Origin: Thermodesulfobacteriota bacterium
Lineage (GTDB): Bacteria > Desulfobacterota > GWC2-55-46 > S146-70 > JAUXIU01
Assembly: GCA_046753505.1 (NCBI GenBank)
Contig: JBHHTR010000002.1
Coordinates: forward strand, 1-44,220
DNA: 44,220 nt
Direction: 5' to 3'
The notes beneath the pieces were generated by a model that was not told the origin of the DNA, ran no database searches, and saw nothing but the letters and a program-made list of their open reading frames with translations. A program made the position numbers and the translations under genes. Positions 10,887 through 20,024 of the stretch are shown here, in pieces. How positions within the stretch are numbered: position 1 is the first letter of the stretch; every line of letters begins with the position of its first letter.

Positions 10887-11933
10887 CTACTGAGCGGAAA
10901 GCTTCCCTTCCCTGAGGAGCCGTCCCTTTAGCTGTCCACACGCCGCCCGTATCTCATCGCCCCTGCTCTCCCTCAAGAATGTGGTGTAGCCGTTATCGAT
11001 GAGTATCTTCTGGAACCGGAGGATTGTCCCCCTCTCCGGTCGGGTGAAGGGGATGTCTGGAAAGGGGTTGAAGGGGATGAGGTTGATCTTGCACGGTATT
11101 TTCCTGATGAGGGCGGCAACTTTTCTGGCGTCATCCTCTCCGTCATTTACCCCCTTGATGAGGATGTACTCAAAGGTGACGACCCTCTTTTTGCCGCTCC
11201 CGTAACGGCGGCAAGCCTCCATGAGTTTCTTCAGGGGGTACTTCCGGTTGATCGGCATGAGGCGGTTCCTGACCTCGTCGGTCGCCCCATTGAGGGATAC
11301 GGCCAGCATGACCTTTGTCTCTCTCCCCAGCCGCTCTATCATTGGGGCAATACCTGCTGTCGATACGGTGATCCTCCTAGGAGCAAAGGCGAGGCCGCTC
11401 TGGTCGGTTGCAATATCAAGAAAACGCTTGACCTCTTCGTAGTTGAGGAGTGGCTCCCCCATCCCCATGAGGACAAGATTGGTAATCGGTTGGTCATCAG
11501 AGAGGAGTTGTTGGGCAGCATGCACCTGGTTGATCATCTCCGAGAGCTTCAGGTTCCTGACGAAGCCTCCCCTCCCTGTCACACAGAAGGCGCACTCGAG
11601 GGGACATCCCGCCTGGGTCGAGATGCAGAGGGTCAACCGCCTCTCCTCTGGGATAATCACCGATTCTATACAGTTGCCGTCATCGAGTTCGAGAAGGAGC
11701 TTTCTCGTACCGTCACCGGACTCCACCGTTTCCGTGACATGGGGGGCGCTTATGGTAAAACGCCCCTTCATCTCCTCCCTGAACCCCTTCGACACATCGG
11801 TCATCTCATCGAATGAGACGGCCCCCCGCCTGTAGATCCACCGATAAAGCTGATGAGCCCTGTACGGTTTTTCATCGATGGTGGCCATCAGTTCGTCGAG
11901 TCCCTCTAGTCCCAGTTCTTTTAGCTCTTCCAT
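10887..11933 (-). CDS. rlmN: Radical SAM 23S rRNA/tRNA adenine-C2 methyltransferase RlmN
   Basis: 348 aa with YRAHQLYRWIY at the N-terminus, the radical SAM cluster motif CPLECAFC and MGMGEPLLN. The overall RlmN/Cfr architecture is present. Confidence 0.9.
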   Translation of the reverse strand: MEELKELGLEGLDELMATIDEKPYRAHQLYRWIYRRGAVSFDEMTDVSKGFREEMKGRFTISAPHVTETVESGDGTRKLLLELDDGNCIESVIIPEERRLTLCISTQAGCPLECAFCVTGRGGFVRNLKLSEMINQVHAAQQLLSDDQPITNLVLMGMGEPLLNYEEVKRFLDIATDQSGLAFAPRRITVSTAGIAPMIERLGRETKVMLAVSLNGATDEVRNRLMPINRKYPLKKLMEACRRYGSGKKRVVTFEYILIKGVNDGEDDARKVAALIRKIPCKINLIPFNPFPDIPFTRPERGTILRFQKILIDNGYTTFLRESRGDEIRAACGQLKGRLLREGKLSAQ

Positions 11934-12049
11934 GGAGATAAGGTATCACACCGCCCTTGCAGGCACAACATGGGAGGGTGGCGGGGGCAGTAACCGGTAT
12001 TCCCGTGGAATATGGCTCAAGCGCTACGGAACGACACAAAATACCTTTA

Positions 12050-12157
12050 TCTCACACAGAGTCACAAAGGACACAAAGTTTCTAATGCCACAACGCATAT
12101 TTCTTTCTCATCCAGTTCACTTCTGCTTTCTCTGCGTCTTGGCGGCTTTGTGTGAAA
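12050..12157. repeat. Cargo-less inverted-repeat module, family 1 (arm X at 12050-12078, arm Y' at 12130-12157)
   Basis: The left arm is tctcacacagagtcacaaaggacacaaag and the right arm is ctctgcgtcttggcggctttgtgtgaaa. They are partly complementary. The arms resemble those flanking the GxxExxY gene at 16240/16657. Confidence 0.65.
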
Positions 12158-12310
12158 TTACGGTTCTTGCCGCAGCGCATGGAAAGATGTCATAAACCGT
12201 AGTCGAACCCTTCAGGGTTCGCATTTTCTACGATGCTAAAGCCCTCAACTACATTGAGGGGCGTAGTAACATCTGTAGCCCTCTTCATGAAACAACACGG
12301 AAAATAGCTG

Positions 12311-12416
12311 CCTCACACAGAGCCGCCAAGGGCGCCAGGTTAGAGAGGAGAGAATAGAGATCCCCGATATATTCAATCCTGCTTCTCTTTGCACCTTTGT
12401 GAGCTTTGTGTGAGAT
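12311..12416. repeat. Cargo-less inverted-repeat module, family 1, inverted relative to 12050..12157 (arm Y at 12311-12339, arm X' at 12385-12416)
   Basis: The left arm cctcacacagagccgccaagggcgccagg resembles the reverse complement of 12130-12157. The reverse complement of the right arm (atctcacacaaagctcacaaaggtgcaaagag) resembles 12049-12078. Confidence 0.65.
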
Positions 12417-12717
12417 ATTGTTTTTACAGCAAGAAGAGCATAGAAAGAGGTGGATTGCCTACTGTCAAGTACGAGGCAGGTCCGGTCAAGGCCGGAGCTA
12501 TAATATCAACTATTTCATTGCCGGCTTAATATGCAACAGGTAATGTCTGATTTAGGAGGTGGGGCGGGGGAGGGAGCCCATCCTCCCCCCGCCCACACGC
12601 TGGTGGATTAGGAGGGTAATCCAGGAACCAGCGGTAGTATGGTTCCCATTATACAGGTTGAAGATTAAAGGGAGATTAAAGCATACTTTATTCTTGATGA
12701 ACGGCTTTGCTCCACCT

Positions 12718-15700
12718 TTACCGACTCGTCTGGACAGGAGTCCGGGTTGGAAGATCGCGGTGGCTTGGGTTGCGCTGTGCGGTACGGTCCGCAGCAATCG
12801 TCTTCCGCCTGTTTGTCTCGACGAGGTCCTCCCGGTAGCGGGTGAGGAAGTAGTGGATCGTTTCAACCCTGATCTTGATGGAGCCTGACGGCTTGTTCTC
12901 GTCGATATCCTTGAAGCAGAAGTAGGGAGTTCCCGACCGCTCTACAATCTCCTGAACGGTGGTGTAGATGGGGGCGTCGTGGCCGCACTTGAAGCTCGAC
13001 AGTTCGAGTGCAACGAGGTTTGGATGGCGGGCGGCGTACTTGGCGGCCCATATCTTCATGTTGCTGTTCTCTGAGAAGGAGTTCTTCCAGACGTCGGAGA
13101 TATCCATACCGCTCTCTATCCTGCCCGCCCTCACCTCTCTGCCGAAAAGCTGGTTGATGATGTCGGGGTCGGTGGGGAGGCTCTCATGGGTGAGGATGGG
13201 ATAGCCGTACTTTTGCAACTCTGTGAGTATTCCGTGATTGACGCCGGGGTCGTTGTGGTACGGTCTGCCCAGAATGACGATGCCGATACGCTCCTCGGCG
13301 GCGAGGCGGTCGATGATCTCTCGCCCCCTCTTCCGCGAGGCCGCGCCGTATGCGTTGAGCGCCCTGTACCCCTCTGCAACTGCCCTCTGGTTCTCCTTCT
13401 GTGAGAGACCGAGGATATCCTTGAACTCGTTAAACATCTGCCGTTCCATCAGCGCCCGTTCGCTCAGATTGACATAACTATTGAGGAAGGTAATCCCCTC
13501 CTCCTTGAAGAGGTCCCCCTCCTTTATGAAGGCGGCCTTTGTCGCCTCCGGGGTCGCGGCAACGGTGGGGCAACTTCTGGAGTTCATGGTATTCTCCAGG
13601 GTCGATGGGATACAGTCGATCATGGGGAAGAAGATGTAGTCGAGTTTCCGCTTCGGGTGTATCTTGTAGAGTAGGTTGTGAACATGTGGTATCCCAAGCT
13701 TTGAGGGGAAACAGGGATCGATTGCCCCACGCTTCGCGCCCTCTTTATAGAGCTTTTCCGATGTATATTCGGAGAAGATGATCTTCTTCGGATCAATGCC
13801 GAGGGACTCGAAGTATGCCCTGAACCACGGCGCCAAGGAGTACATGTTGAGAACCCGGGGGATGCCGATGGTCACATCTCCGCGCTGCTCCATCATCTTG
13901 ATACGCCGCTTTTGACCCTTTGTCAGGGCGTAGCGGGGAAGGGGCTCGGCGACGATATCTGGCTTCTGCGTCTTGAAGACCTCAGCAGAGGCAACTTCGG
14001 AAAGGTTGGGGTTCTCCTTCATGACCGCATCGACGCCCTTCTTGATATGACGCATCGCATCGGCGCTCTCGACTGTCCCCTTTTCACATGCGGCAATAAT
14101 GAGCCTCTTCGCATCGGGTTCGAGGGGTACCTTCGATGCAAATGAGGGCCTCTGCTTTTCCTCCTCTAGTTCTCCCTGACCGCTCTTGATGTCGATGAAG
14201 GTTCTCTGGCAGTTGTTTGTGCAGAAGTAGCAGCGGGTATCCTCGTTTCGGGTAGAGTGGTAGCTGATGGCGGCAACGGCGTCGAAACCGATAAAGCTCG
14301 TCCGACGGCCGTTCTCGTAGAGGCGAATTGCCTCGAGGGCCGTCCCGATGGCCCCGCACTCGCCGGTGTATCGGTGGACCCGGATGTTCGGCTCCCTATC
14401 CTTCCCCTCGAAACGGGACTCGATGTAATCGACCTGGGCCTTCACGGCGGCCAGGTTGTGCTGGGTTCCCCCCTGGAGGACGAAGTTTGTTCCCAGTGTT
14501 GCCAGGTTGGGGATCTGCGCCACGTAGAGCCAGATATTTTTCGGGAGGATGTTGGCAAGACCGGCCATGATCTCCTCCGGTTTCCACCCCTGGCGCTGGA
14601 AATTGACGATATCGGACTGGAGGAAGACGGCGCATCCGTAGCCGAATTGGGGGAAGGAGTCGGCCTTGAAGGCAAGGTCGGAAAACTCTTCCACCGCGTA
14701 ACCGAAGGTCTCCGCCGTTGACTGGAGGAAGTAGCCGTTTCCGGCGGAACACTGGGTGTTAAGCTTGAAGTCAACGACCCGTCCGTTCCGAAGTAGGATC
14801 AGCTTGATGTCCTGCCCCCCAACGTCGCAGATAAGATCGACATCCTTGTAGTAGTGGAGGGCCGACTGGGTGTGGGCGACGGTCTCCACGAGGGCCACAT
14901 CGCCTGAGAGGATATCCTTCAGGATATCCTTGGCGTATCCCGTGGTTCCGACTCCCATAATCTTCAGCGTCGCCCCCTGTGACTCTATCTGGCGGCGCAG
15001 GTCGGCGCAGATATCTACAGTGTCCTCGATAGGGTCACCCTTGGAGAGCTGGTACGACTTGCAGATGACCTCGCCCTCCTTATCCATGAGGACCGCCTTG
15101 GTAGAGGTGGAGCCGCCGTCTATGCCGAGCCACGCCTCAACCACCTCCCCCGCCTTAACGCTGGCCGGTTCGAACTTCTCTATCGTGAAACGTCTCTTGA
15201 AGGCCTCCAACTCCTCCGGCGAACTACTGAGACCGGCTCCGCACCCCAAATTCTTCCTGTGTTTTCCACGTTCGTGTGTGATGTAATTTTCCAGACCGAG
15301 CCACCCGGCGTAGAGGCCGACATTCTCCTCCTCTCTACCGTACTCAACTGCGCCAATGGCGGCAAAGTATTCGGCGTTGTCCGGGACAACAACGAGACTC
15401 TCAGGGAGAACACCTCCCGGGATAGAGACCTTTCGCTCCTCCCACATCTTCGGGATGTGGACCTTCCAGCACTCCTGCATCCCCTTGATGTAGGTATTGG
15501 GACCGCCCAAAAGGAGGACGTGGGGGAGGAGGGTATTGCCTCTGGTGAGGACCGATATGTTCTGCTGTATGATCGCTTCGAAAAGAGAAGCCATCAACTC
15601 TGCTCGCGGCACCCCGAGTTTCTGGAGACCGTTGATATCTGTCTCGGCAAAGACGCCGCACTTGGCGGCGACGGGGTGGAGCTTGTGGCCGAGATATCCC

Positions 15701-16182
15701 ATCCCGGCGAGTTGCTCAGGGGGGATGTTGAGCTTTGCGTTAATCTTGTCGATGACCGCCCCCGTCCCTCCGGCACACTTGTCGTTCATGGTGGGGATCT
15801 TCCGCTTCCGTTTTGTCTCGGTATCCTCCTGGAAGACGATTATCTTTGCGTCCTGACCGCCAAGTTCGATGACCGAACCGCACTCGGGGTAGAGCTTCTC
15901 CACCGCCAGGGAGACGGCGTTGACCTCCTGAACAAAGCGCGCCCCGATCTGGGGCGCAACCCCTCCGCCGCCGGAGCCGGTGATGTAGGCGTAACAGTCG
16001 TCCTGTTTTATATCCAGCTCCCTCTCGATCCTCTGTAGAAATTCGAGGGCCTTCTCCTGCTGCTTGCTCTCGTGACGCTGGTAGTCCTGCCAGAGGATCG
16101 TATCCGACTCACCGTCCACGACTACCGCCTTGACGGTGGTAGAACCGACATCCATGCCTATGTAGTATCTTCGTTTATCCAT
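12718..16182 (-). CDS. Fusion protein: two BcrAD/BadFG (HgdC-like) activase ATPase domains plus a C-terminal dehydratase-activase-related domain
   Basis: 1154 aa with two ASKHA-type phosphate-1 motifs (GMDVGSTTVKAVV and GIDGGSTSTKAVL). The domain order matches CoA-substrate-specific enzyme activase fusion proteins. Confidence 0.8.
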   Translation of the reverse strand: MDKRRYYIGMDVGSTTVKAVVVDGESDTILWQDYQRHESKQQEKALEFLQRIERELDIKQDDCYAYITGSGGGGVAPQIGARFVQEVNAVSLAVEKLYPECGSVIELGGQDAKIIVFQEDTETKRKRKIPTMNDKCAGGTGAVIDKINAKLNIPPEQLAGMGYLGHKLHPVAAKCGVFAETDINGLQKLGVPRAELMASLFEAIIQQNISVLTRGNTLLPHVLLLGGPNTYIKGMQECWKVHIPKMWEERKVSIPGGVLPESLVVVPDNAEYFAAIGAVEYGREEENVGLYAGWLGLENYITHERGKHRKNLGCGAGLSSSPEELEAFKRRFTIEKFEPASVKAGEVVEAWLGIDGGSTSTKAVLMDKEGEVICKSYQLSKGDPIEDTVDICADLRRQIESQGATLKIMGVGTTGYAKDILKDILSGDVALVETVAHTQSALHYYKDVDLICDVGGQDIKLILLRNGRVVDFKLNTQCSAGNGYFLQSTAETFGYAVEEFSDLAFKADSFPQFGYGCAVFLQSDIVNFQRQGWKPEEIMAGLANILPKNIWLYVAQIPNLATLGTNFVLQGGTQHNLAAVKAQVDYIESRFEGKDREPNIRVHRYTGECGAIGTALEAIRLYENGRRTSFIGFDAVAAISYHSTRNEDTRCYFCTNNCQRTFIDIKSGQGELEEEKQRPSFASKVPLEPDAKRLIIAACEKGTVESADAMRHIKKGVDAVMKENPNLSEVASAEVFKTQKPDIVAEPLPRYALTKGQKRRIKMMEQRGDVTIGIPRVLNMYSLAPWFRAYFESLGIDPKKIIFSEYTSEKLYKEGAKRGAIDPCFPSKLGIPHVHNLLYKIHPKRKLDYIFFPMIDCIPSTLENTMNSRSCPTVAATPEATKAAFIKEGDLFKEEGITFLNSYVNLSERALMERQMFNEFKDILGLSQKENQRAVAEGYRALNAYGAASRKRGREIIDRLAAEERIGIVILGRPYHNDPGVNHGILTELQKYGYPILTHESLPTDPDIINQLFGREVRAGRIESGMDISDVWKNSFSENSNMKIWAAKYAARHPNLVALELSSFKCGHDAPIYTTVQEIVERSGTPYFCFKDIDENKPSGSIKIRVETIHYFLTRYREDLVETNRRKTIAADRTAQRNPSHRDLPTRTPVQTSR

Positions 16183-16239
16183 AATCTTATTTGACGTAAG
16201 CTTTCACCGTAGTTGATTTTTCATAAAGTCTTCAGTCTA

Positions 16240-16685
16240 TTCTCACACAAAGGCACTAAGGCACAAAGAATTACTCTACTTCTCCATTTAGGATTCGTGA
16301 GATACCGTTCTTCATTAACTCTTCTCCAAAGTTCAGCAGGTATCCAAGCTTCATTCCGGTTAGTCGTAAATAAGTCAACACCTGCTTCTTGTGAGCTTTG
16401 GTGGCACGTTCGACTGATTTCAGTTCCAGTATAACCTTGTTTTCCACGATGATATCCGCGCGAAACCCTTCATTGAGTTTAACGCCGTGGAACTCAATAG
16501 CAACAGGAACCTGGCATTCGACACTCAAACCCCTTTCTCTAAGCTGATGCGCCAAGATTACTTCGTAAACCGATTCGAGCAGGCCAGGCCCAAGCTCCAT
16601 GTGCATATGCACCGCACAGTCAACCACAACCTTGCCTATGTCGTTCTCTGTCACCCCTTTGTGCCTCTGTGCCTTTGTGTGAGAA
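16240..16685. mobile_element. Inverted-repeat-bounded cassette carrying the GxxExxY gene (candidate mobile or processed cassette)
   Basis: The 29-nt arms 16240-16268 (ttctcacacaaaggcactaaggcacaaag) and 16657-16685 (ctttgtgcctctgtgcctttgtgtgagaa) are complementary at 27/29 positions. The gene fills the interior to within 2 nt of each arm. The same arm family recurs at 12050-12416. Confidence 0.5.
16271..16654 (-). CDS. GxxExxY family protein (PD-(D/E)XK nuclease-like)
   Basis: 127 aa. LGPGLLESVYE carries the GxxExxY motif, and ADIIVENKVILELK is a PD-(D/E)XK-like D...ExK core. The start codon is GTG. Confidence 0.85.
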   Translation of the reverse strand: MTENDIGKVVVDCAVHMHMELGPGLLESVYEVILAHQLRERGLSVECQVPVAIEFHGVKLNEGFRADIIVENKVILELKSVERATKAHKKQVLTYLRLTGMKLGYLLNFGEELMKNGISRILNGEVE

Positions 16686-16766
16686 TCATAGACAACTTCA
16701 ATGGCTACAAATTGACTAATTCAATTTAACTTTGCACTCGCTACTGTTTTGACAGTTGTCTTTGTC

Positions 16767-18554
16767 TCAACTGGCCATCATCTCTGATTTAGCTCTCCGT
16801 CCTTTGAGATTATCAGCTCTTTTCCTCTTCATATGTGACTTCCGTATCTCCACCCTCTTGACCTCGGCTACATGTTTTACGAAGCGGGCGGCCCTTCCCG
16901 TAACCCCCTTGTAGTGGGGCAGGTGGTAGAGGGGGCGCTTCATGTCGGGATGGCTCTCCACGTACGCTTTCAACTCTTCGAGGGTGAATCCGCTCTTCTC
17001 AAGGACCTCTTTGAACTCCTTCCGGGCCTTTGTTTTTGCCTCACCGAGGGCCATCTGCACCCTGGAGTGGGCGTTAATCTCACCCTCACCCGATGTCTCG
17101 ATGGGTAGGAATATCATCTTCTTGTAGTGAGAGACTACAGCCGCCTGGACGCCATCGGACTGGGTGCTTGGCAGACAGCCGAAGGGTTTCAGGGATAGGA
17201 CCATGTGGGCCAACTCCTTCTCGGTGTAGTAGATATTCTTCGCCACCTCCAGATGCCCCTCGCCGCCGTCGCTCCTGCTGTGGTAGAAACGGTGGGCGAG
17301 ACGCTCCAACTCCGCCTGGTCTATCAGGTCGTGGGCGGTGCCGCCGAGGGCCTTGATATAACGCCGGTACTCACGGCTGAATATCTTTTCGGTAAGACCG
17401 AGCATGAGCTCCTTCTTCTTGAATCTCTTGAAGTGGCCCAGACGTTTTTTTATTTCCCATTTCTCCGGGGCGGTTGCGCCATCCTTACAGAGTCCCCTGC
17501 GGTCGTGGGCGCTCTGCTTTGCCTTGTGAAGGAGGTAGCTGATCCAGTTGGAGATGGGAGAGATGTCGGCCTCCGCCCCCTCCTTTTCGAGGAAGGCAAA
17601 CATGTTGAAATTGCCGTCACCCTCGGTCGTCTGAGCCCAGAACTCGCCTGTTATCTTGACGACCGGTTTTACCCTGAAGGGGTCGATCTCAATGGTATTG
17701 AGCCGCTCCGCCACATGGCGCAGCCCTGCGGTGTAGTCGTCTCCGTAGAGTTGTGAGATAAATTTCCCGACATAATTGCCGGCCCCATCCATGCCGACAG
17801 TGTTGAGACGTTGCCTTGCCTTTTCAGAAAACTCGAATGGACGCTTCTCTTTTATCGTCTTGTATAGGATTTGCATCGCCTCATCGAGAACTTTGTCCGT
17901 CTCTCCCTTATTCACCTCATAGGGGCGAATCTGATAGGCGAGGCCGTTGATAAGGTCGGCCATCATGAGTGAGTTGATGAAGCCGAGGAAGAAATCCATG
18001 TTAAGCTCCAGTCCGGCCTCGTCGCCCGATTGCTCCATCCCGGCCGCCTGCTGGAAGAGGATGACCCGGAAGCCGCTAAAACCGGCGTTGTCGAGGGCGA
18101 GCCGGTACTCCGCCTCGTACATACCGAAACGGCACGGGCCGCACGACCCGGCAGTGAAGAAGATATAGTTGTCGATAATCTCCTTTTTTGTGAGCCCCTC
18201 CTGCTCCAGTTTCTTGAGGTGCTGAACGAGGTTGCCTACCGTAAAGTAGGTGGGGTTGCACTGGCCGTTGTTGCCGTACTCCTTGCCCATCTGAAAGGAC
18301 TCTACCGTCGGAACGGGGAGGTTCTCTGCCCTGTAGCCGAGGCTTTCCAGGGTGCCCTTGCTCAGCAGTTCATGCTTCCACGGCAGCCCCCCGAAGAGGA
18401 TAGTCGTATGGTCACGCTGCTCCTTTGTAAAGAAGGCCTCCTGTGGACGGGTGAAGTGTGATGGCTCCTGTTCACCCTCCTCGTGGAGGTTGGTAGGCTC
18501 CTCGTTCATCGTATCTATATTGTGGTTCCTACTGGCACGCTCTGTCTGTTCCAT
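16767..18554 (-). CDS. 2-hydroxyacyl-CoA dehydratase / benzoyl-CoA reductase subunit-like protein (partner of the activase fusion)
   Basis: 595 aa. FFTAGSCGPCRFGMYEAEY and SLKPFGCLPS Cys motifs are typical of HgdB/BcrC-like and activase-related proteins. It is co-oriented with 12718..16182. Confidence 0.65.
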   Translation of the reverse strand: MEQTERASRNHNIDTMNEEPTNLHEEGEQEPSHFTRPQEAFFTKEQRDHTTILFGGLPWKHELLSKGTLESLGYRAENLPVPTVESFQMGKEYGNNGQCNPTYFTVGNLVQHLKKLEQEGLTKKEIIDNYIFFTAGSCGPCRFGMYEAEYRLALDNAGFSGFRVILFQQAAGMEQSGDEAGLELNMDFFLGFINSLMMADLINGLAYQIRPYEVNKGETDKVLDEAMQILYKTIKEKRPFEFSEKARQRLNTVGMDGAGNYVGKFISQLYGDDYTAGLRHVAERLNTIEIDPFRVKPVVKITGEFWAQTTEGDGNFNMFAFLEKEGAEADISPISNWISYLLHKAKQSAHDRRGLCKDGATAPEKWEIKKRLGHFKRFKKKELMLGLTEKIFSREYRRYIKALGGTAHDLIDQAELERLAHRFYHSRSDGGEGHLEVAKNIYYTEKELAHMVLSLKPFGCLPSTQSDGVQAAVVSHYKKMIFLPIETSGEGEINAHSRVQMALGEAKTKARKEFKEVLEKSGFTLEELKAYVESHPDMKRPLYHLPHYKGVTGRAARFVKHVAEVKRVEIRKSHMKRKRADNLKGRRAKSEMMAS

Positions 18555-18617: not shown

Positions 18618-19538
18618 TTATTCGTTATTACTGATTTTTGCACCTTTAGATTGATTATGGTAACTACATAGCAACTCTCCATTATCTAAGATTGTTCTAC
18701 CGCCTTTAGCATGCGGGATAACATGGTCGGCTTGATAATTAGACCAGCTTACCTTCGCTTCATTTTCTGATTTCTCTTCTTTTAAACACTGTTGGCAAAA
18801 TCCTTTTCCTTTTCGGTAAATAATAATTCTCTCCAGCTCTGTGAATGCTCTTTTTGCATCCTTCTCAATGAGTTCAATATGATGTTCTTTCAGGTACTCG
18901 AAAAAGACTTGGCGCAATATTCTATCTCTTGTCTCTAAATCCTTTTCCCCTTGCTGTCTCCTATTGCTAAATGTCAGTAAATCGGTATCAGTAGATTCAT
19001 CATAAGTTTTCCAGCGATTATGGTAATAGTAGATAAATTCACGAACAGTCGTCCTGATTTTTTCATCAAGCACATAGTATTTACGCAAATGCCTAATGAG
19101 CAAATAAATTGATATAATAAGATACTCTACTGACAACTCCTTAATTCCTGACTTGGAATCTAACATTGGATCGTCTTTGAATATCTCATAGAATACTTTT
19201 AAGGTCTGCCGTGTAGCACTCGCTTCTGGTTTATTTTCAAAATCAAGATTACCAATGCCATCGTCTTGTTTGGCGTTATTAATGAATTCTTCAATCTTTT
19301 TGTCACTTAAATCAGCATAGCCACCACCTTGCTCAATCATGAGGAAACGAGCCATAAATTGAAGGTGCTTCATGCGTATGTTGTCTACATTCAATAGCGT
19401 GAAAAATGGTTCCTTGTCCGGGTTGTTATCTATAGGCTCATAATTTTCATAATTAAAAGTTTGATCATCGGCATACTTGACGATGAAATTTCTTGTAAGG
19501 CTTGATAGTTGTGCATGAGCCACCTCCATGTAATTCAA
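18618..19538 (-). CDS. C-terminal part of a GmrSD-like DUF262-HNH protein (HNH nuclease end); it follows an in-frame TAA, so this is either a split gene or a pseudogene fragment
   Basis: The C-terminal HNH motif is DHVIPHAKGGRTILDNGELLCSYHNQSKG. It is in the same frame as and contiguous with 19539..20024. The only starts are a TTG at 19538 or an ATG at 19529. The region is AT-rich. Confidence 0.6.
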   Translation of the reverse strand: MNYMEVAHAQLSSLTRNFIVKYADDQTFNYENYEPIDNNPDKEPFFTLLNVDNIRMKHLQFMARFLMIEQGGGYADLSDKKIEEFINNAKQDDGIGNLDFENKPEASATRQTLKVFYEIFKDDPMLDSKSGIKELSVEYLIISIYLLIRHLRKYYVLDEKIRTTVREFIYYYHNRWKTYDESTDTDLLTFSNRRQQGEKDLETRDRILRQVFFEYLKEHHIELIEKDAKRAFTELERIIIYRKGKGFCQQCLKEEKSENEAKVSWSNYQADHVIPHAKGGRTILDNGELLCSYHNQSKGAKISNNE

Positions 19539-20024
19539 TTATTCTCCCTGTTGCAACCTCCAAAATATCTCAGTGGCGATAATTTGATGATTTACATCGT
19601 GTGGCTTGTCAATATTTTTTATTACATCCGCTTGGTATTTGAGAGATTTATCAATAAATTTCCTAATGTCTGTGTCTAGGTCATTGTAATACAAACCAGG
19701 TAAGCTTTTATCCACATCAGAAAGAGTTTTTGGTAATGGATATTGATTACTAAAAAATTCTTGGACGGTCGTTATTCGTTGTTGCCCATCAATGATTTCA
19801 TTTACCGTTTGATACTCTGAGAGCCGAACTTCACGTATAACGAGTTTAGGAATGTAGAAACGTCGAAAAAGGCTGTCCATAAGGGACTGTTTCTTGACTT
19901 TCGACCATACTGATTTGCGTTGATAAGGCGGGCGGGTTACATAATCTTCCTTGTAGTCGAAGAAATCCTTAATACTAATATCTGTAGAAACAACTGTATA
20001 TTCTGACTTCGGATTAAATGGCAT
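19539..20024 (-). CDS. N-terminal DUF262 (ParB/Srx-like) domain of a GmrSD-like protein, ended by an in-frame TAA at 19541-19539
   Basis: PPYQRKSVW and IDGQQR motifs are present. The ORF stops inside the segment IFWRLQQGE*LNYMEVAHA, where intact family members continue. Confidence 0.7.
   Translation of the reverse strand: MPFNPKSEYTVVSTDISIKDFFDYKEDYVTRPPYQRKSVWSKVKKQSLMDSLFRRFYIPKLVIREVRLSEYQTVNEIIDGQQRITTVQEFFSNQYPLPKTLSDVDKSLPGLYYNDLDTDIRKFIDKSLKYQADVIKNIDKPHDVNHQIIATEIFWRLQQGE

Follow-up and report, generated by a model that had tools for sequence, protein, structure and literature searches.

A predicted GxxExxY nuclease gene enclosed by inverted arrays of an 8-nt motif: a cassette inserted into bacterial operons of many phyla

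Why should two genes that lie side by side in related genomes be kept apart by several hundred nucleotides, and why should most of the gap be taken up by a small nuclease-type gene closed in by a long inverted repeat? The question is raised by a minus-strand operon of a Thermodesulfobacteriota bacterium, contained in a stretch of 44,220 nt of contig JBHHTR010000002.1 which was analysed as a whole and is called here the window. The unit occupying the gap (the window cassette) and its surroundings comprise the following features:

12718..16182, minus strand: downstream host gene, an activase fusion of 1154 aa with two BcrAD_BadFG ATPase domains and DUF2229
16235..16240, no strand assigned: GTCTAT, outer extension of the inverted repeat, partner of 16688-16693
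16239..16268, minus strand: 3' arm of the window cassette in transcript sense, the minus strand reading CTTTGTGC-CTTAGTGC-CTTTGTGTGAGAAT
16271..16654, minus strand: GxxExxY gene, GTG start, 127 aa, predicted minimal PD-(D/E)XK nuclease
16657..16686, minus strand: 5' arm of the window cassette in transcript sense, ATTCTCACACAAAG-GCACAGAG-GCACAAAG, a CTC end plus three 8-nt N-CAC-R-R-AG units
16688..16693, no strand assigned: ATAGAC, outer extension of the inverted repeat, pairing with GTCTAT at 16235-16240 over a 2-nt bulge, as read from the sequence
16767..18554, minus strand: upstream host gene, a conserved activase partner of 595 aa without a Pfam family

The first-pass annotation had described a long inverted repeat around a 127-aa GxxExxY ORF lying 2 nt from each arm, richer in AT than both neighbours and set in a 584-bp gap between co-oriented genes; coordinates, profile matches (see below) and composition bear out each of these statements. 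The cassette sits in the gap 16183-16766 (584 nt); its two 30-nt arms, 388 nt apart, are complementary at 28 of 30 positions (93%), the 5' arm ending 2 nt before the GTG start codon and the 3' arm starting 2 nt past the TAA. The GC content of the cassette, 46.4%, is about 10 points lower than that of the two flanking genes (57.4% and 55.5%). In the minimum-free-energy RNA fold the arm stem closes off the ORF (z -5.3) and is carried on through the outer pairing of 16688-16693 with 16235-16240. The label "dehydratase-like", given earlier to the 595-aa neighbour, is unsupported; indeed, the protein has no Pfam or NCBIfam match, and its homologues are named activators or sugar kinase/HSP70/actin-type nucleotide-binding proteins in the source annotations.

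That the inverted repeat is due to chance, or is an ordinary terminator or attenuator hairpin of the host operon, is a reading with practically no probability left: hairpins are frequent between genes, but this one is the top inverted repeat within 1.5 kb across the whole window (ungapped score 24, against 11-16 in 30 window shuffles), is followed by no T-run and is missing from orthologous operons, while matching arms are carried by hundreds of unrelated loci. No promoter-like or terminator-like site was detected in the window cassette. An Rfam scan of positions 11900-16800 returned no rRNA, and no bacterial family was matched in the window region or in five module-rich loci, where the matches were sub-threshold look-alikes of miRNA hairpins only.

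A comparison with orthologous activase loci, proposed in the first-pass annotation as a search for empty sites, does reveal such sites. The gap between activase and partner gene measures 52, 3 and 79 nt in three orthologous operons without the unit (L102, L103 and L104, respectively) against 584 nt here; because these gaps are so short, the window cassette is an insertion, in sense, between genes adjacent in related genomes. In the empty-site alignment the sequence downstream of the cassette matches from TGAAGA through to the activase start, and the empty site of L102, whose partner protein is 82% identical to the 595-aa protein of the window, holds one ATTGAAGA. A candidate direct repeat is present in two copies:

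16230..16234, no strand assigned: candidate 5-nt direct repeat CTTCA (TGAAG in sense), weak
16696..16700, no strand assigned: second CTTCA copy, weak candidate

The repeat is kept as a weak candidate because the family-wide test for target-site duplication was negative, flanking direct repeats of at least 5 nt at matched offsets being found in 9 of 33 cassettes, compared to 6.3 ± 2.2 in mismatched controls; the missing duplication signal speaks against transposition with staggered cuts.

The 127-aa protein is matched over its full length by PF13366 (PDDEXK_3; E 1.3e-39, 135.6 bits, cut-off 22) and by TIGR04256 (GxxExxY; E 4.8e-40, 136.5 bits, cut-off 35). Its motif residues are E27 (in GLLESVY), D67, E77-x-K79 and Q91-x-x-x-Y95; among 40 relatives G24, E27, Y30, D67, E77, K79 and Q91 are invariant and Y95 nearly so. 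A sequence search returned no solved structure; the best Foldseek matches of the AlphaFold model (pLDDT 86) are Cas4 (4r5q, 4ic1), lambda-exonuclease and Hjc, and PADLOC yielded weak Cas4/PDDEXK matches only. The catalytic residues and the modelled alpha-beta-beta-beta-alpha-beta fold are those of a PD-(D/E)XK core, with nuclease activity as the predicted function. Values of dN/dS between 0.03 and 0.3, for orthologous as well as paralogous copies, indicate a functional protein under strong purifying selection. The GxxExxY/PDDEXK_3 family comprises about 18,000 clusters at 50% identity (E ≤ 0.001); its function was given as unknown in a superfamily survey of 2012 (PMC3424549), and full-text literature searches for GxxExxY and PDDEXK_3/PF13366 returned no paper on the family after that survey. 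The cassette architecture hands this large orphan family a concrete and testable candidate substrate, namely, the CACRRAG arms.

Each arm is composed of a conserved CTC followed by three tandem 8-nt units (N-CAC-R-R-AG), with the consensus CTC-n-CACRRAG-G-CACNRAG-g-CACRRAG and a unit spacing of 8,8 or 8,9; the number of units is nearly always three, that is, ~24-27 bp or roughly two turns of dsRNA. A search beyond the locus, carried out with a tandem-unit detector whose background in shuffled sequence is 0-1 arms per 44 kb, shows that the arms are not unique to it, as they flank GxxExxY genes in at least 10 phyla: in a set of 80 such loci an F arm upstream together with an R arm downstream is found in 47, and at least one arm in 67. 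In the dominant layout (26/80 loci) the two arms of one hairpin enclose the gene; in a second, different layout a full hairpin module is present on each side of the gene. Start and stop codons lie 2-15 nt from the arms in most copies, and the closest relative of the window gene (91% identical in amino acids, 82% in nucleotides) resides in a different operon with its arms likewise 2 nt from ATG and TAA. Relatives of 39-53% identity in Bacteroides finegoldii, Bernardetia and Sphingomonas carry the same type of arm-plus-gene unit, the one in Sphingomonas (S. parapaucimobilis) being placed as fabD-[gene]-fabG, and a plasmid collection contains eight distant relatives, three of them annotated. Carriers also include the cultured Pelotalea chapellei DSM 13688 (L040), Cerasicoccus maritimus NBRC 105382 (L077) and Pelovirga terrestris (L074) and, among complete or near-complete sequences, Latescibacteria OX638329.1, Calditrichales OZ254086.1, Opitutales CBDBFA010000003.1 and Kuenenia. 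The gene and its arms move as one between loci and phyla that are unrelated. In Scalindua arabica three paralogues are 88-90% identical over ~450-480 nt and their similarity stops at the arms; because the similarity ends exactly there and the unit appears at new loci, the arms delimit what moves. The earlier proposal of a discrete insertable unit is thus strongly supported, by the empty orthologous operons, the recurring architecture and the arm-to-arm similarity of the paralogues.

Mobility of the cassette looks slow, many insertions being common to different species (L029/L031, L064/L072 and L038/L041). Some old copies have decayed arms around an intact gene, which implies that the gene can be retained without a strict need of intact arms. 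A co-evolution of arm variant and protein clade was considered and rejected: a copy from Calditrichales (L058) does group with Opitutales copies in both protein clade and CGC arms, but a Scalindua copy (L050) has CGC arms although its nearest proteins have CAC arms, and the CAC/CGC variant, which can switch between closely related proteins, is therefore not strictly coupled to the clade. Full-text searches for GxxExxY, PDDEXK_3, the arm sequences, IVS protein and REPIN/RAYT plus Planctomycetes returned no description of arms or cassette, and the family is apparently undescribed. The three-unit arrays, the spread over many phyla and the great excess of gene-less modules, to which we now turn, had all escaped the first reading of the locus.

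Two such modules, 4 kb from the window cassette, had been recognized as cargo-less units with related arms at 12050-12416:

12050..12158, no strand assigned: gene-less module 1, F arm TCTCACACAGAG-TCACAAAG-GACACAAAG at 12050-12078, R arm at 12130-12158, 51-nt loop
12311..12417, no strand assigned: gene-less module 2, F arm at 12311-12339 (CGC-type units), R arm at ~12388-12417, hairpin fold

Both fold as hairpins (z -2.9 to -4.7), module 1 on either strand, and a complementarity of 94% over 18 nt links the F arm of module 2 with the R arm of module 1. Both have the CTCACACARAG end and the 8-nt unit structure in common with the cassette arms, a kinship which lies above chance: the 11-mer CTCACACARAG occurs six times in the window against 1.3 expected, a count reached in 0 of 100 shuffles, and the tandem-unit detector finds exactly six arms, those of the cassette and of the two modules, against 0-1 in shuffled windows. 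Dispersal of the arm repeat within one genome is thus observed locally, in the window and in individual loci. In a metagenome scan that started from the arms, 74 short modules, 98 solo arms and 14 long modules were found, two of the long ones with a GxxExxY gene, and 5 of 120 arm-containing metagenome loci hold such a gene; the corresponding scan of viral contigs gave 28 short and 10 long modules, none with GxxExxY. Gene-less modules outnumber gene-bearing ones by more than 10:1 in these scans. GxxExxY is the only recurrent cargo of the arm modules, no other family recurring between or beside the arms. The long modules without it look like host-gene fragments between solo arms; one module (L045) encloses a truncated GxxExxY N-terminus, an internally deleted copy. 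The location of short modules with respect to gene orientation was uninformative with crude ORF calls.

Whether the arms act in RNA as well as in DNA may be judged from orientation, pairing strength and covariation. In 42 loci the GxxExxY gene has the orientation of both its neighbours; in 4 it opposes both. Strand asymmetry was assessed by a duplex-energy test in place of wobble-pair counting: in 34 cassettes the arms pair better in the sense RNA (-37.4 kcal/mol) than in the antisense (-34.7 kcal/mol), with 22 loci against 10 (Wilcoxon p = 0.003). The wobble count itself (G:U vs A:C) is 26 vs 16 in cassettes (13 vs 5 loci), which is not significant, and is opposite in direction in the short modules (45 vs 70); the sense-strand excess could reflect a transcription-associated C-to-T mutation bias rather than selection. 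Covariation among 10 cassettes is modest, with 92.6% of cells paired against 89.3 ± 0.9 in shuffled sets and 13 double-sided changes where shuffling gives 6.2. Agreement between the two arms at the fourth position of each 8-nt unit does not exceed chance; the constraint on the motif is therefore at least as strong as that on pairing. The suggestion of an RNA stem analogous to the protein-coding intervening sequences (IVS) of 23S rRNA accordingly stands as plausible, with indirect support from the sense bias, the better sense pairing, the modest covariation and the absence of promoter-like and terminator-like sites from the window cassette; the two differ in the cargo, which is a PD-(D/E)XK and not a four-helix-bundle protein, and in the host site, which is mRNA and not rRNA.

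The explanation that we favour, with a probability of roughly 60%, is that of a promoterless mobile cassette accompanied by gene-less derivatives, in which the nuclease probably acts on the arms and the arms probably form an RNase III-type stem in the transcript. At the DNA level the arms would be both the ends of the mobile unit and the recognition sites of the encoded nuclease, which would cut at them to move or copy the unit or, alternatively, would cut gene-less modules, into which repair would then copy the gene (homing); the gene-less modules would be its non-autonomous kin, standing to it as REPINs stand to RAYT genes and MITEs to insertion sequences. At the RNA level the cassette would be transcribed only within its host operon; its arms would form a 27-30-bp stem closing off the ORF and abutting the start codon, a likely substrate of RNase III, whose cleavage would part the host cistrons cleanly and control whether the nuclease is translated, the same solution as in ORF-bearing 23S rRNA IVS. 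The link between nuclease and arms is one that we infer from association in sequence, and recognition of the arms by the protein is putative. It is tempting to go further, and we do so tentatively, the odds being somewhat against it, by proposing that GxxExxY genes and CACRRAG hairpin modules constitute an undescribed mobile system of many phyla, driven by a PD-(D/E)XK enzyme with neither HUH/DDE transposase nor target-site duplication and behaving in RNA as an "operon intervening sequence"; its means of spread might be cleavage directed by hairpins or cruciforms, or else homing into modules that are empty, and removal or opening of the stem in RNA might allow the unit to live inside essential operons, for example, fabD-fabG.

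The numerical predominance of gene-less modules invites the opposite view, in which the short hairpins are primary (REP-like, dependent on an unlinked enzyme or serving the stability or processing of host mRNA) and GxxExxY is a selfish or defence-type passenger with no role in moving the repeats. The ratio above 10:1, the gene's presence in just 5 of 120 arm-containing metagenome loci, the decay of arms around intact, selected genes and the switching of the CAC/CGC variant between closely related proteins are all in line with it; we nevertheless consider it unlikely, since GxxExxY is the sole recurrent cargo, the vicinity of the arms shows no second recurring gene for a candidate enzyme, start and stop codons lie 2-15 nt from the arms in most copies, and the association holds down to 39% protein identity in distant phyla, a persistence difficult to account for if there were no functional link.

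The unit might instead be purely an RNA device, whose arms are an RNase III-type stem or an autoregulatory site of the nuclease on its own mRNA, insulating the operon and throttling a potentially toxic nuclease; its spread would be left to ordinary recombination or to horizontal transfer, the arms having no mobility chemistry of their own. The orientation bias of 42 vs 4, the absence of a promoter-like site in the window cassette, the stem abutting the start codon, the near-constant three units (two turns of dsRNA) and the stronger sense pairing (p = 0.003) agree with this view, as does a geometry like that of the Coxiella IVS (428-444 nt, 28-bp stem; PMC4990558). Against it, the similarity of paralogues ends exactly at the arms and the unit is found at new loci; the wobble bias of the short modules runs the opposite way; and the CAC..AG motif is conserved between phyla, with the pairing positions inside it free to vary. 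RNase III needs no conserved CAC..AG motif, and we regard a purely RNA-level role as decidedly improbable. A further reading, of integron type, takes the hairpin modules for recombination sites similar to attC and GxxExxY for a gene often carried as a cassette; it draws on the attC-like module size (60-110 nt), on some loci (L064) with a module-gene-module order and near-identical flanking modules, and on a locus (L101) with runs of small co-oriented genes and one module between each; it was rejected and its probability is very small, the arm consensus having no R''/R' core sites (RYYYAAC ... GTTRRRY), the gene-inside-hairpin layout being the dominant one (26/80), the cassettes being single and inside housekeeping operons, and no integrase or transposase family being matched among the 25 larger window ORFs scanned against Pfam.

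Should the nuclease drive the repeats, as the favoured mobile-cassette reading supposes, the system would be a second, mechanistically different pairing of a genome-dispersed palindrome with a resident enzyme, after the REPIN/RAYT type, in phyla without a known one, including anammox Planctomycetota, Verrucomicrobiota, Desulfobacterota and Bacteroidota. Should the stem be processed in RNA, the ORF-bearing rRNA IVS would become one case of a broader habit, in which small cassettes enter any highly transcribed unit and a terminal stem keeps them harmless, and this would bear on the long-standing question of the nature and movement of IVS. Recognizing the arms would also improve annotation: spurious ORFs arise from them (SHKGTKAQR is one such translation), and arrays of regular spacing, L076 for example, could pass for repeats of another class. 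Judging by the many short contigs among the carriers, the arms probably interrupt assemblies as well.

The cassette shares traits with several known systems. Like insertion sequences with their MITEs, it has terminal inverted repeats and gene-less, non-autonomous copies with the same ends; unlike them, it shows no target-site duplication signal and encodes no DDE, HUH, serine or tyrosine transposase, its only ORF being the 127-aa PD-(D/E)XK protein. An integron cassette differs in its GTTRRRY core, which the CTCnCACRRAG-type arm consensus does not contain, and the present unit stands alone in its operon. Correia/nemis elements of Neisseria and ERIC elements of enterobacteria are likewise short, bounded by inverted repeats and located in transcribed intergenic regions, with RNA hairpins that serve as substrates of RNase III or RNase E and change how neighbouring genes are expressed; gene-less copies are abundant in the present family too. 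Correia elements make TA duplications, and the distribution of Correia and ERIC is genus-level, unlike that of the cassette over many phyla; we know of no coding full-length form of either with a PD-(D/E)XK gene. Known homing endonucleases belong to the LAGLIDADG, GIY-YIG, HNH, His-Cys box, PD-(D/E)XK (I-Ssp6803I-like) and EDxHD families; their free-standing or intron-less genes resemble the cassette in that a single small nuclease gene is the whole element, inserted in sense between conserved host genes with a patchy, horizontal distribution; the difference lies in the arm homology, just ~27-35 bp in the cassette, and to our knowledge no homing endonuclease targets a dispersed palindromic repeat.

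REPIN/RAYT systems have in common with the cassette a gene for a small enzyme set between two inverted occurrences of a short repeat, intergenic sites and gene-less inverted doublets with a short spacer that are far commoner than gene-bearing ones; a further likeness is that no target-site duplication is known to us for REPIN/RAYT. The enzymes differ, a PD-(D/E)XK nuclease (PF13366 only) in place of an IS200/IS605-like HUH Y1 transposase, and so do the repeats, arms of three 8-nt units in place of the single GTAG-/CGTC-tagged palindrome of REP; GxxExxY genes are, moreover, strongly sense-oriented in operons, and they often occur in several copies and spread horizontally, in contrast to RAYTs, for which a single copy and vertical inheritance are typical.

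As to the ORF-bearing IVS of 23S rRNA (Leptospira, Coxiella, Brucella and others), the window cassette lies in an mRNA operon between protein-coding genes and not in an rRNA helix, its cargo matches PF13366 only and not the four-helix-bundle S23p/Avd-like family PF05635, and its arms are arrays of a conserved 8-nt motif. No IVS-type gene was found near the arms in ~280 loci, the motif GxxRxxxSxxxNxxE occurring in no plausible protein; one doubtful case (L092, 553-903) may be an IVS-type remnant. In Coxiella the IVS measures 428-444 nt and its 28-bp stem is cut by RNase III; ORF-bearing IVS are transcribed only within the host transcript, and their sporadic distribution is consistent with horizontal transfer (PMC4990558). 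Members of the IVS protein family are also encoded between the genes of operons, for example, between cmr3 and cmr2 (PMC3936711). The overall design is shared: a unit of ~430-450 nt with one ORF of ~120 aa, enclosed by terminal inverted repeats that form a stem of ~28 bp in the IVS and consist, in the window cassette, of 30-nt arms complementary at 93%.

The cassette in the window, a GxxExxY gene between inverted-repeat arms, forms the top-scoring inverted repeat with arms within 1.5 kb in the whole 44 kb; when the arms are limited to a distance of 600 nt, it scores 24, and 30 shuffles of the window reach 11-16. The relevant features are the following:

12050-12158, module 1, gene-less hairpin with arms of the same kind as those of the cassette
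12311-12417, module 2, a second gene-less hairpin with such arms
12718-16182, minus strand, activase fusion (1154 aa; two BcrAD_BadFG domains and DUF2229)
16230-16234 and 16696-16700, CTTCA direct repeat flanking the cassette
16239-16268 and 16657-16686, cassette arms (30-nt inverted repeat, 93% complementary, 388 nt between them)
16271-16654, minus strand, 127-aa ORF with GTG start, occupying the interior between the arms
16767-18554, minus strand, 595-aa protein without family assignment

The ORF is separated from the arms by 2 nt at its start codon and by 2 nt at its stop codon, and belongs, as a full-length match, to PF13366 PDDEXK_3 (E 1.3e-39) and TIGR04256 GxxExxY (E 4.8e-40); the gap of 584 nt holding the cassette is flanked by two minus-strand genes, and the GC content of the cassette is 46.4%, against 57.4% and 55.5% in these two genes. 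The inverted repeat, the gene filling it, its position between co-oriented genes, its AT-richness and the two cargo-less modules with related arms had all been described in the first-pass annotation and are borne out, while no support was found for the label "dehydratase-like" given to the 595-aa neighbour; the observation holds true, and has a wider reach than was apparent at that stage.

That the cassette interrupts an operon is shown by the nearest homologues of the 595-aa protein, mapped onto their own contigs: the distance between the two host genes is 52 nt in L102 (a Thermodesulfobacteriota MAG, homologue at 82% identity), 3 nt in L103 and 79 nt in L104, and downstream of the cassette the window aligns to the spacer of L102, which lacks the insert, over the stretch between TGAAGA and the start codon of the activase gene. 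Normally, therefore, the two host genes are neighbours, and in the window they are separated by the cassette; the empty sites which had been proposed as a check do exist in orthologous loci. The identical protein occurs in five public contigs, in all five with the context of the window.

Other features of the same region deserve mention. On the minus strand at 18618-20024, between a sigma-54 activator gene and the 595-aa gene, lie two genes at 36% GC encoding a GmrSD_N/DUF262 protein (161 aa) and an HNH protein (306 aa), with PADLOC matches to NsnA, PD-T4-2_A and type II REase-like entries; since in L102 the activator directly precedes the 595-aa partner gene, this pair resembles a second insertion, of defence type, at the same locus. 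Just 3' of the activase gene, at 12557-12596, a near-perfect G+C-rich hairpin (GGGGCGGGGGAGGGA / TCCTCCCCCCGCCC), which is not followed by a T-run and was not called by the terminator scan, may be a non-canonical terminator. A terminator-like stem-loop with T-run (CGAACCCTTCAGGGTTCG CATTTTCT) is found on the plus strand at 12204-12221, exactly between the two gene-less modules and antisense to the surrounding genes, and a 22-nt inverted repeat at 954-1056 (TTAACCCGCATTATTCATGAAT / ATTTGTGAATAATGCGGGTTAA; 91% complementary, spacer 59 nt) is unrelated to the CACRRAG arms.

The arms are more than mutually complementary: in each, a terminal CTC precedes three 8-nt units in tandem, N-CAC-R-R-AG, the 5' arm of the cassette reading CTC-a-CACAAAG-g-CACAGAG-g-CACAAAG. 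Among 222 three-unit arms from 80 loci, unit spacing is 8,8 in 113, 8,9 in 75 and 9,9 in 22; arms with more than three units are rare, and the flanking T and C of CTC are 92% conserved though absent from the search pattern. The arms translate to recurring peptides (e.g., SHKGTKAQR and SHKDTKA, in many loci including L163, L026, L035 and L117), and spurious ORFs of 80-160 aa arise from them. In the window, the reverse arm of module 1 (12130-12155) and the forward arm of module 2 (12313-12330), both with CGC-type units, are 94% complementary, a match exceeding that of either arm to its own partner, which suggests an older arrangement or exchange between adjacent modules.

Scanning by protein, with each species represented by one genome, returned 306 relatives, and the best 80 loci were analysed for arms. 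These 80 belong to Planctomycetota (including many anammox genomes of Scalindua, Brocadia and Kuenenia), Verrucomicrobiota, Desulfobacterota, Geobacteraceae, Chloroflexota, Nitrospirota, Hydrogenedentota, Latescibacterota, Calditrichota, Bacteroidota, Bacillota and Gammaproteobacteria. At least one arm is present in 67 of them (against 0-1 arms per 44 kb of shuffled sequence), and a forward arm just upstream together with a reverse arm just downstream of the gene in 47; the arm-gene-arm layout of the window is the commonest (26/80 by strict call), a second layout having one complete short hairpin module on either side of the gene. In the nearest relative (91% aa and 82% nt identity), located between UDP-glucose dehydrogenase and epimerase genes, the arms are also 2 nt from ATG and from TAA; another relative is flanked by DegT and URO-D genes. 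The distant members from annotated replicons, namely those of Bacteroides finegoldii (radA-[gene]-FAD protein, 39% identity), Bernardetia (45%) and Sphingomonas parapaucimobilis (fabD-[gene]-fabG, 53%), are in sense orientation between neighbouring housekeeping genes, and units of CACAGAG or CGCGAAG type are found next to the gene; the Sphingomonas copy (NZ_CP155749.1, 482837-483265), inside a fatty-acid synthesis operon with gaps of 33 nt and 2 nt to fabD/fabG, retains the upstream arm only (CGCGAAG units). The family comprises 18,140 clusters at 50% identity (E ≤ 0.001). Some library proteins of 250-295 aa (P0241, P0243, P0245 and others) carry two GxxExxY-like stretches, perhaps as tandem fusions, or perhaps because neighbouring cassettes were read as a single gene. 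Many contigs with close homologues are very short (0.5-3 kb), which fits with arm repeats breaking assemblies.

The proposed count of filled and empty arm pairs was obtained by arm-first scans. In 120 metagenome stretches (629 kb) these found 74 short gene-less modules (loops <150 nt), 98 solo three-unit arms (roughly half close to the end of a contig) and 14 long modules, two with GxxExxY; 50 IMG/VR stretches yielded 28 short and 10 long modules, none with a GxxExxY gene. Among ORFs that lie between or next to arms in the correct orientation, GxxExxY is the sole recurrent family, the others being antisense or low-complexity artefacts, or host genes between neighbouring modules. A 176-nt module (L045) retains the first 32 codons of a GxxExxY gene, and at least some gene-less modules are thus internal-deletion derivatives.

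Further arrangements were observed. In a Methylacidiphilales MAG (L101, 180-2480), small co-oriented genes (glyoxalase/VOC-like and others) have one near-identical short module per intergenic gap, with a 14-nt A-rich loop, an arrangement integron-like in look; every mismatch in these modules is an A·C on the strand of the genes and a G·U on the other. In a Kuenenia stuttgartiensis MAG (L076, 1160-1660), three near-identical tandem modules with a period of ~130 nt lie directly 3' of a GxxExxY gene; such regular arrays might be mistaken for other repeat classes. In an Opitutales MAG (L092, 553-903), arms of four perfect GCACAAAG units surround a 289-nt interior with a single ORF, beginning VRTYRDLIVWRKG, a start which we take to resemble the N-terminus of four-helix-bundle (23S IVS-type) proteins; this interior is a doubtful candidate for the remnant of a second cargo type.

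Three paralogues in different contexts of one Scalindua arabica genome are 88-90% identical over ~450-480 nt, the similarity starting and stopping at the arms. Protein identities of 60-90% between phyla, and the multiple transfers noted in a 2012 superfamily survey (PMC3424549), point to horizontal spread; many insertions are old, being common to sister species, and arm decay is seen while the gene persists. Flanking direct repeats, searched for systematically, occur in 9 of 33 cassettes against a background of 6.3 ± 2.2, and in view of this lack of excess the CTTCA repeat of the window is just a weak hint. With empty orthologous operons, arm-bounded paralogues and recurrence across phyla, the discrete insertable unit suggested earlier holds, and a discrete mobile cassette family is the reading we favour (probability about 0.85).

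The gene is oriented with both neighbours in 42 loci and against both in 4; the arm-gene-arm layout leaves no space for an internal promoter, and no promoter-like or terminator-like sites were found in the window cassette. The protein is under strong purifying selection (dN/dS 0.03-0.3 in orthologous and paralogous pairs), with catalytic E27, D67, E77-x-K79 and Q91-x-x-x-Y95 invariant or nearly so; its AlphaFold model (pLDDT 86) has a PD-(D/E)XK core with Cas4, lambda-exonuclease and Hjc as top structural matches, no solved structure close by sequence having been found. The cassette is, in sum, an inserted promoterless unit bounded by arms, in a family spanning many phyla, with gene-less modules sharing its ends, a sense orientation and a nuclease under selection.

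Whether the arms act as an RNA stem or as a DNA motif has to be weighed on several observations. The stem enclosing the ORF, as earlier supposed, is recovered in the computed fold of the sense transcript, where the arms are predicted to form the closing stem (z -5.3). Across 34 cassettes the sense transcript gives the more stable arm duplex, compared with antisense (-37.4 vs -34.7 kcal/mol; 22 vs 10 loci; Wilcoxon p = 0.003), which means that sense-strand mismatches are preferentially G:U; an alternative source of this asymmetry is a transcription-linked mutation bias. In ten cassettes of identical unit spacing, 92.6% of cells are standard pairs, against 89.3 ± 0.9 with partners shuffled among cassettes, and double-sided changes number 13 vs 6.2; at the fourth position of each unit the match to the partner is no better than chance, and in the short modules the wobble bias is reversed relative to cassettes. 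The conservation of the CAC..AG core goes far beyond the needs of a stem and, like the last two observations, counts against pairing as the main constraint. In our reading, the arm motif serves for recognition by a protein, for which the encoded nuclease is the most economical choice, and pairing in the sense RNA constrains gene-bearing copies in addition, but more weakly.

At the DNA level, the arms would be both element ends and nuclease sites, a proposal to which we give slightly less than even odds: the nuclease would cut the arms and the unit move, or it would cut empty modules, repair from a filled copy then installing the gene, a route which could propagate both the arm-gene-arm and the module-gene-module layouts. 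Given the lack of target-site duplications, homing or hairpin-directed chemistry fits better than staggered-cut transposition. At the RNA level, and equally tentatively, a host promoter would read through the cassette, and the 27-30-bp stem adjoining the start codon, a likely RNase III substrate, would be cleaved, releasing the host cistrons and opening the start site of the nuclease.

Neither Rfam nor the searchable literature yielded an account of the arms or of their association with the gene; prior informal knowledge, for instance in the free text of the TIGR04256 curators, is possible. Integron cassette identity was rejected for the GxxExxY cassette, the arm consensus lacking an attC core and none of the 25 larger window ORFs scanned against Pfam matching an integrase family. 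Its geometry is that of the ORF-bearing 23S rRNA IVS, exemplified in Coxiella by elements of 428-444 nt that have a stem of 28 bp and a small ORF and are excised by RNase III (PMC4990558), yet two traits that define an IVS are missing: a location in rRNA and an ORF for a four-helix bundle. An enzyme gene between inverted repeats, accompanied by many gene-less doublets, recalls REPIN/RAYT, although the enzyme class differs; the ends and derivatives recall MITEs, but neither a recognised transposase nor a duplication signal is present. The cassette is rated as akin to these known kinds, inverted-repeat-bounded miniature elements and IVS-like cassettes, and there is a reasonable chance that the family represents a new enzyme-repeat system.
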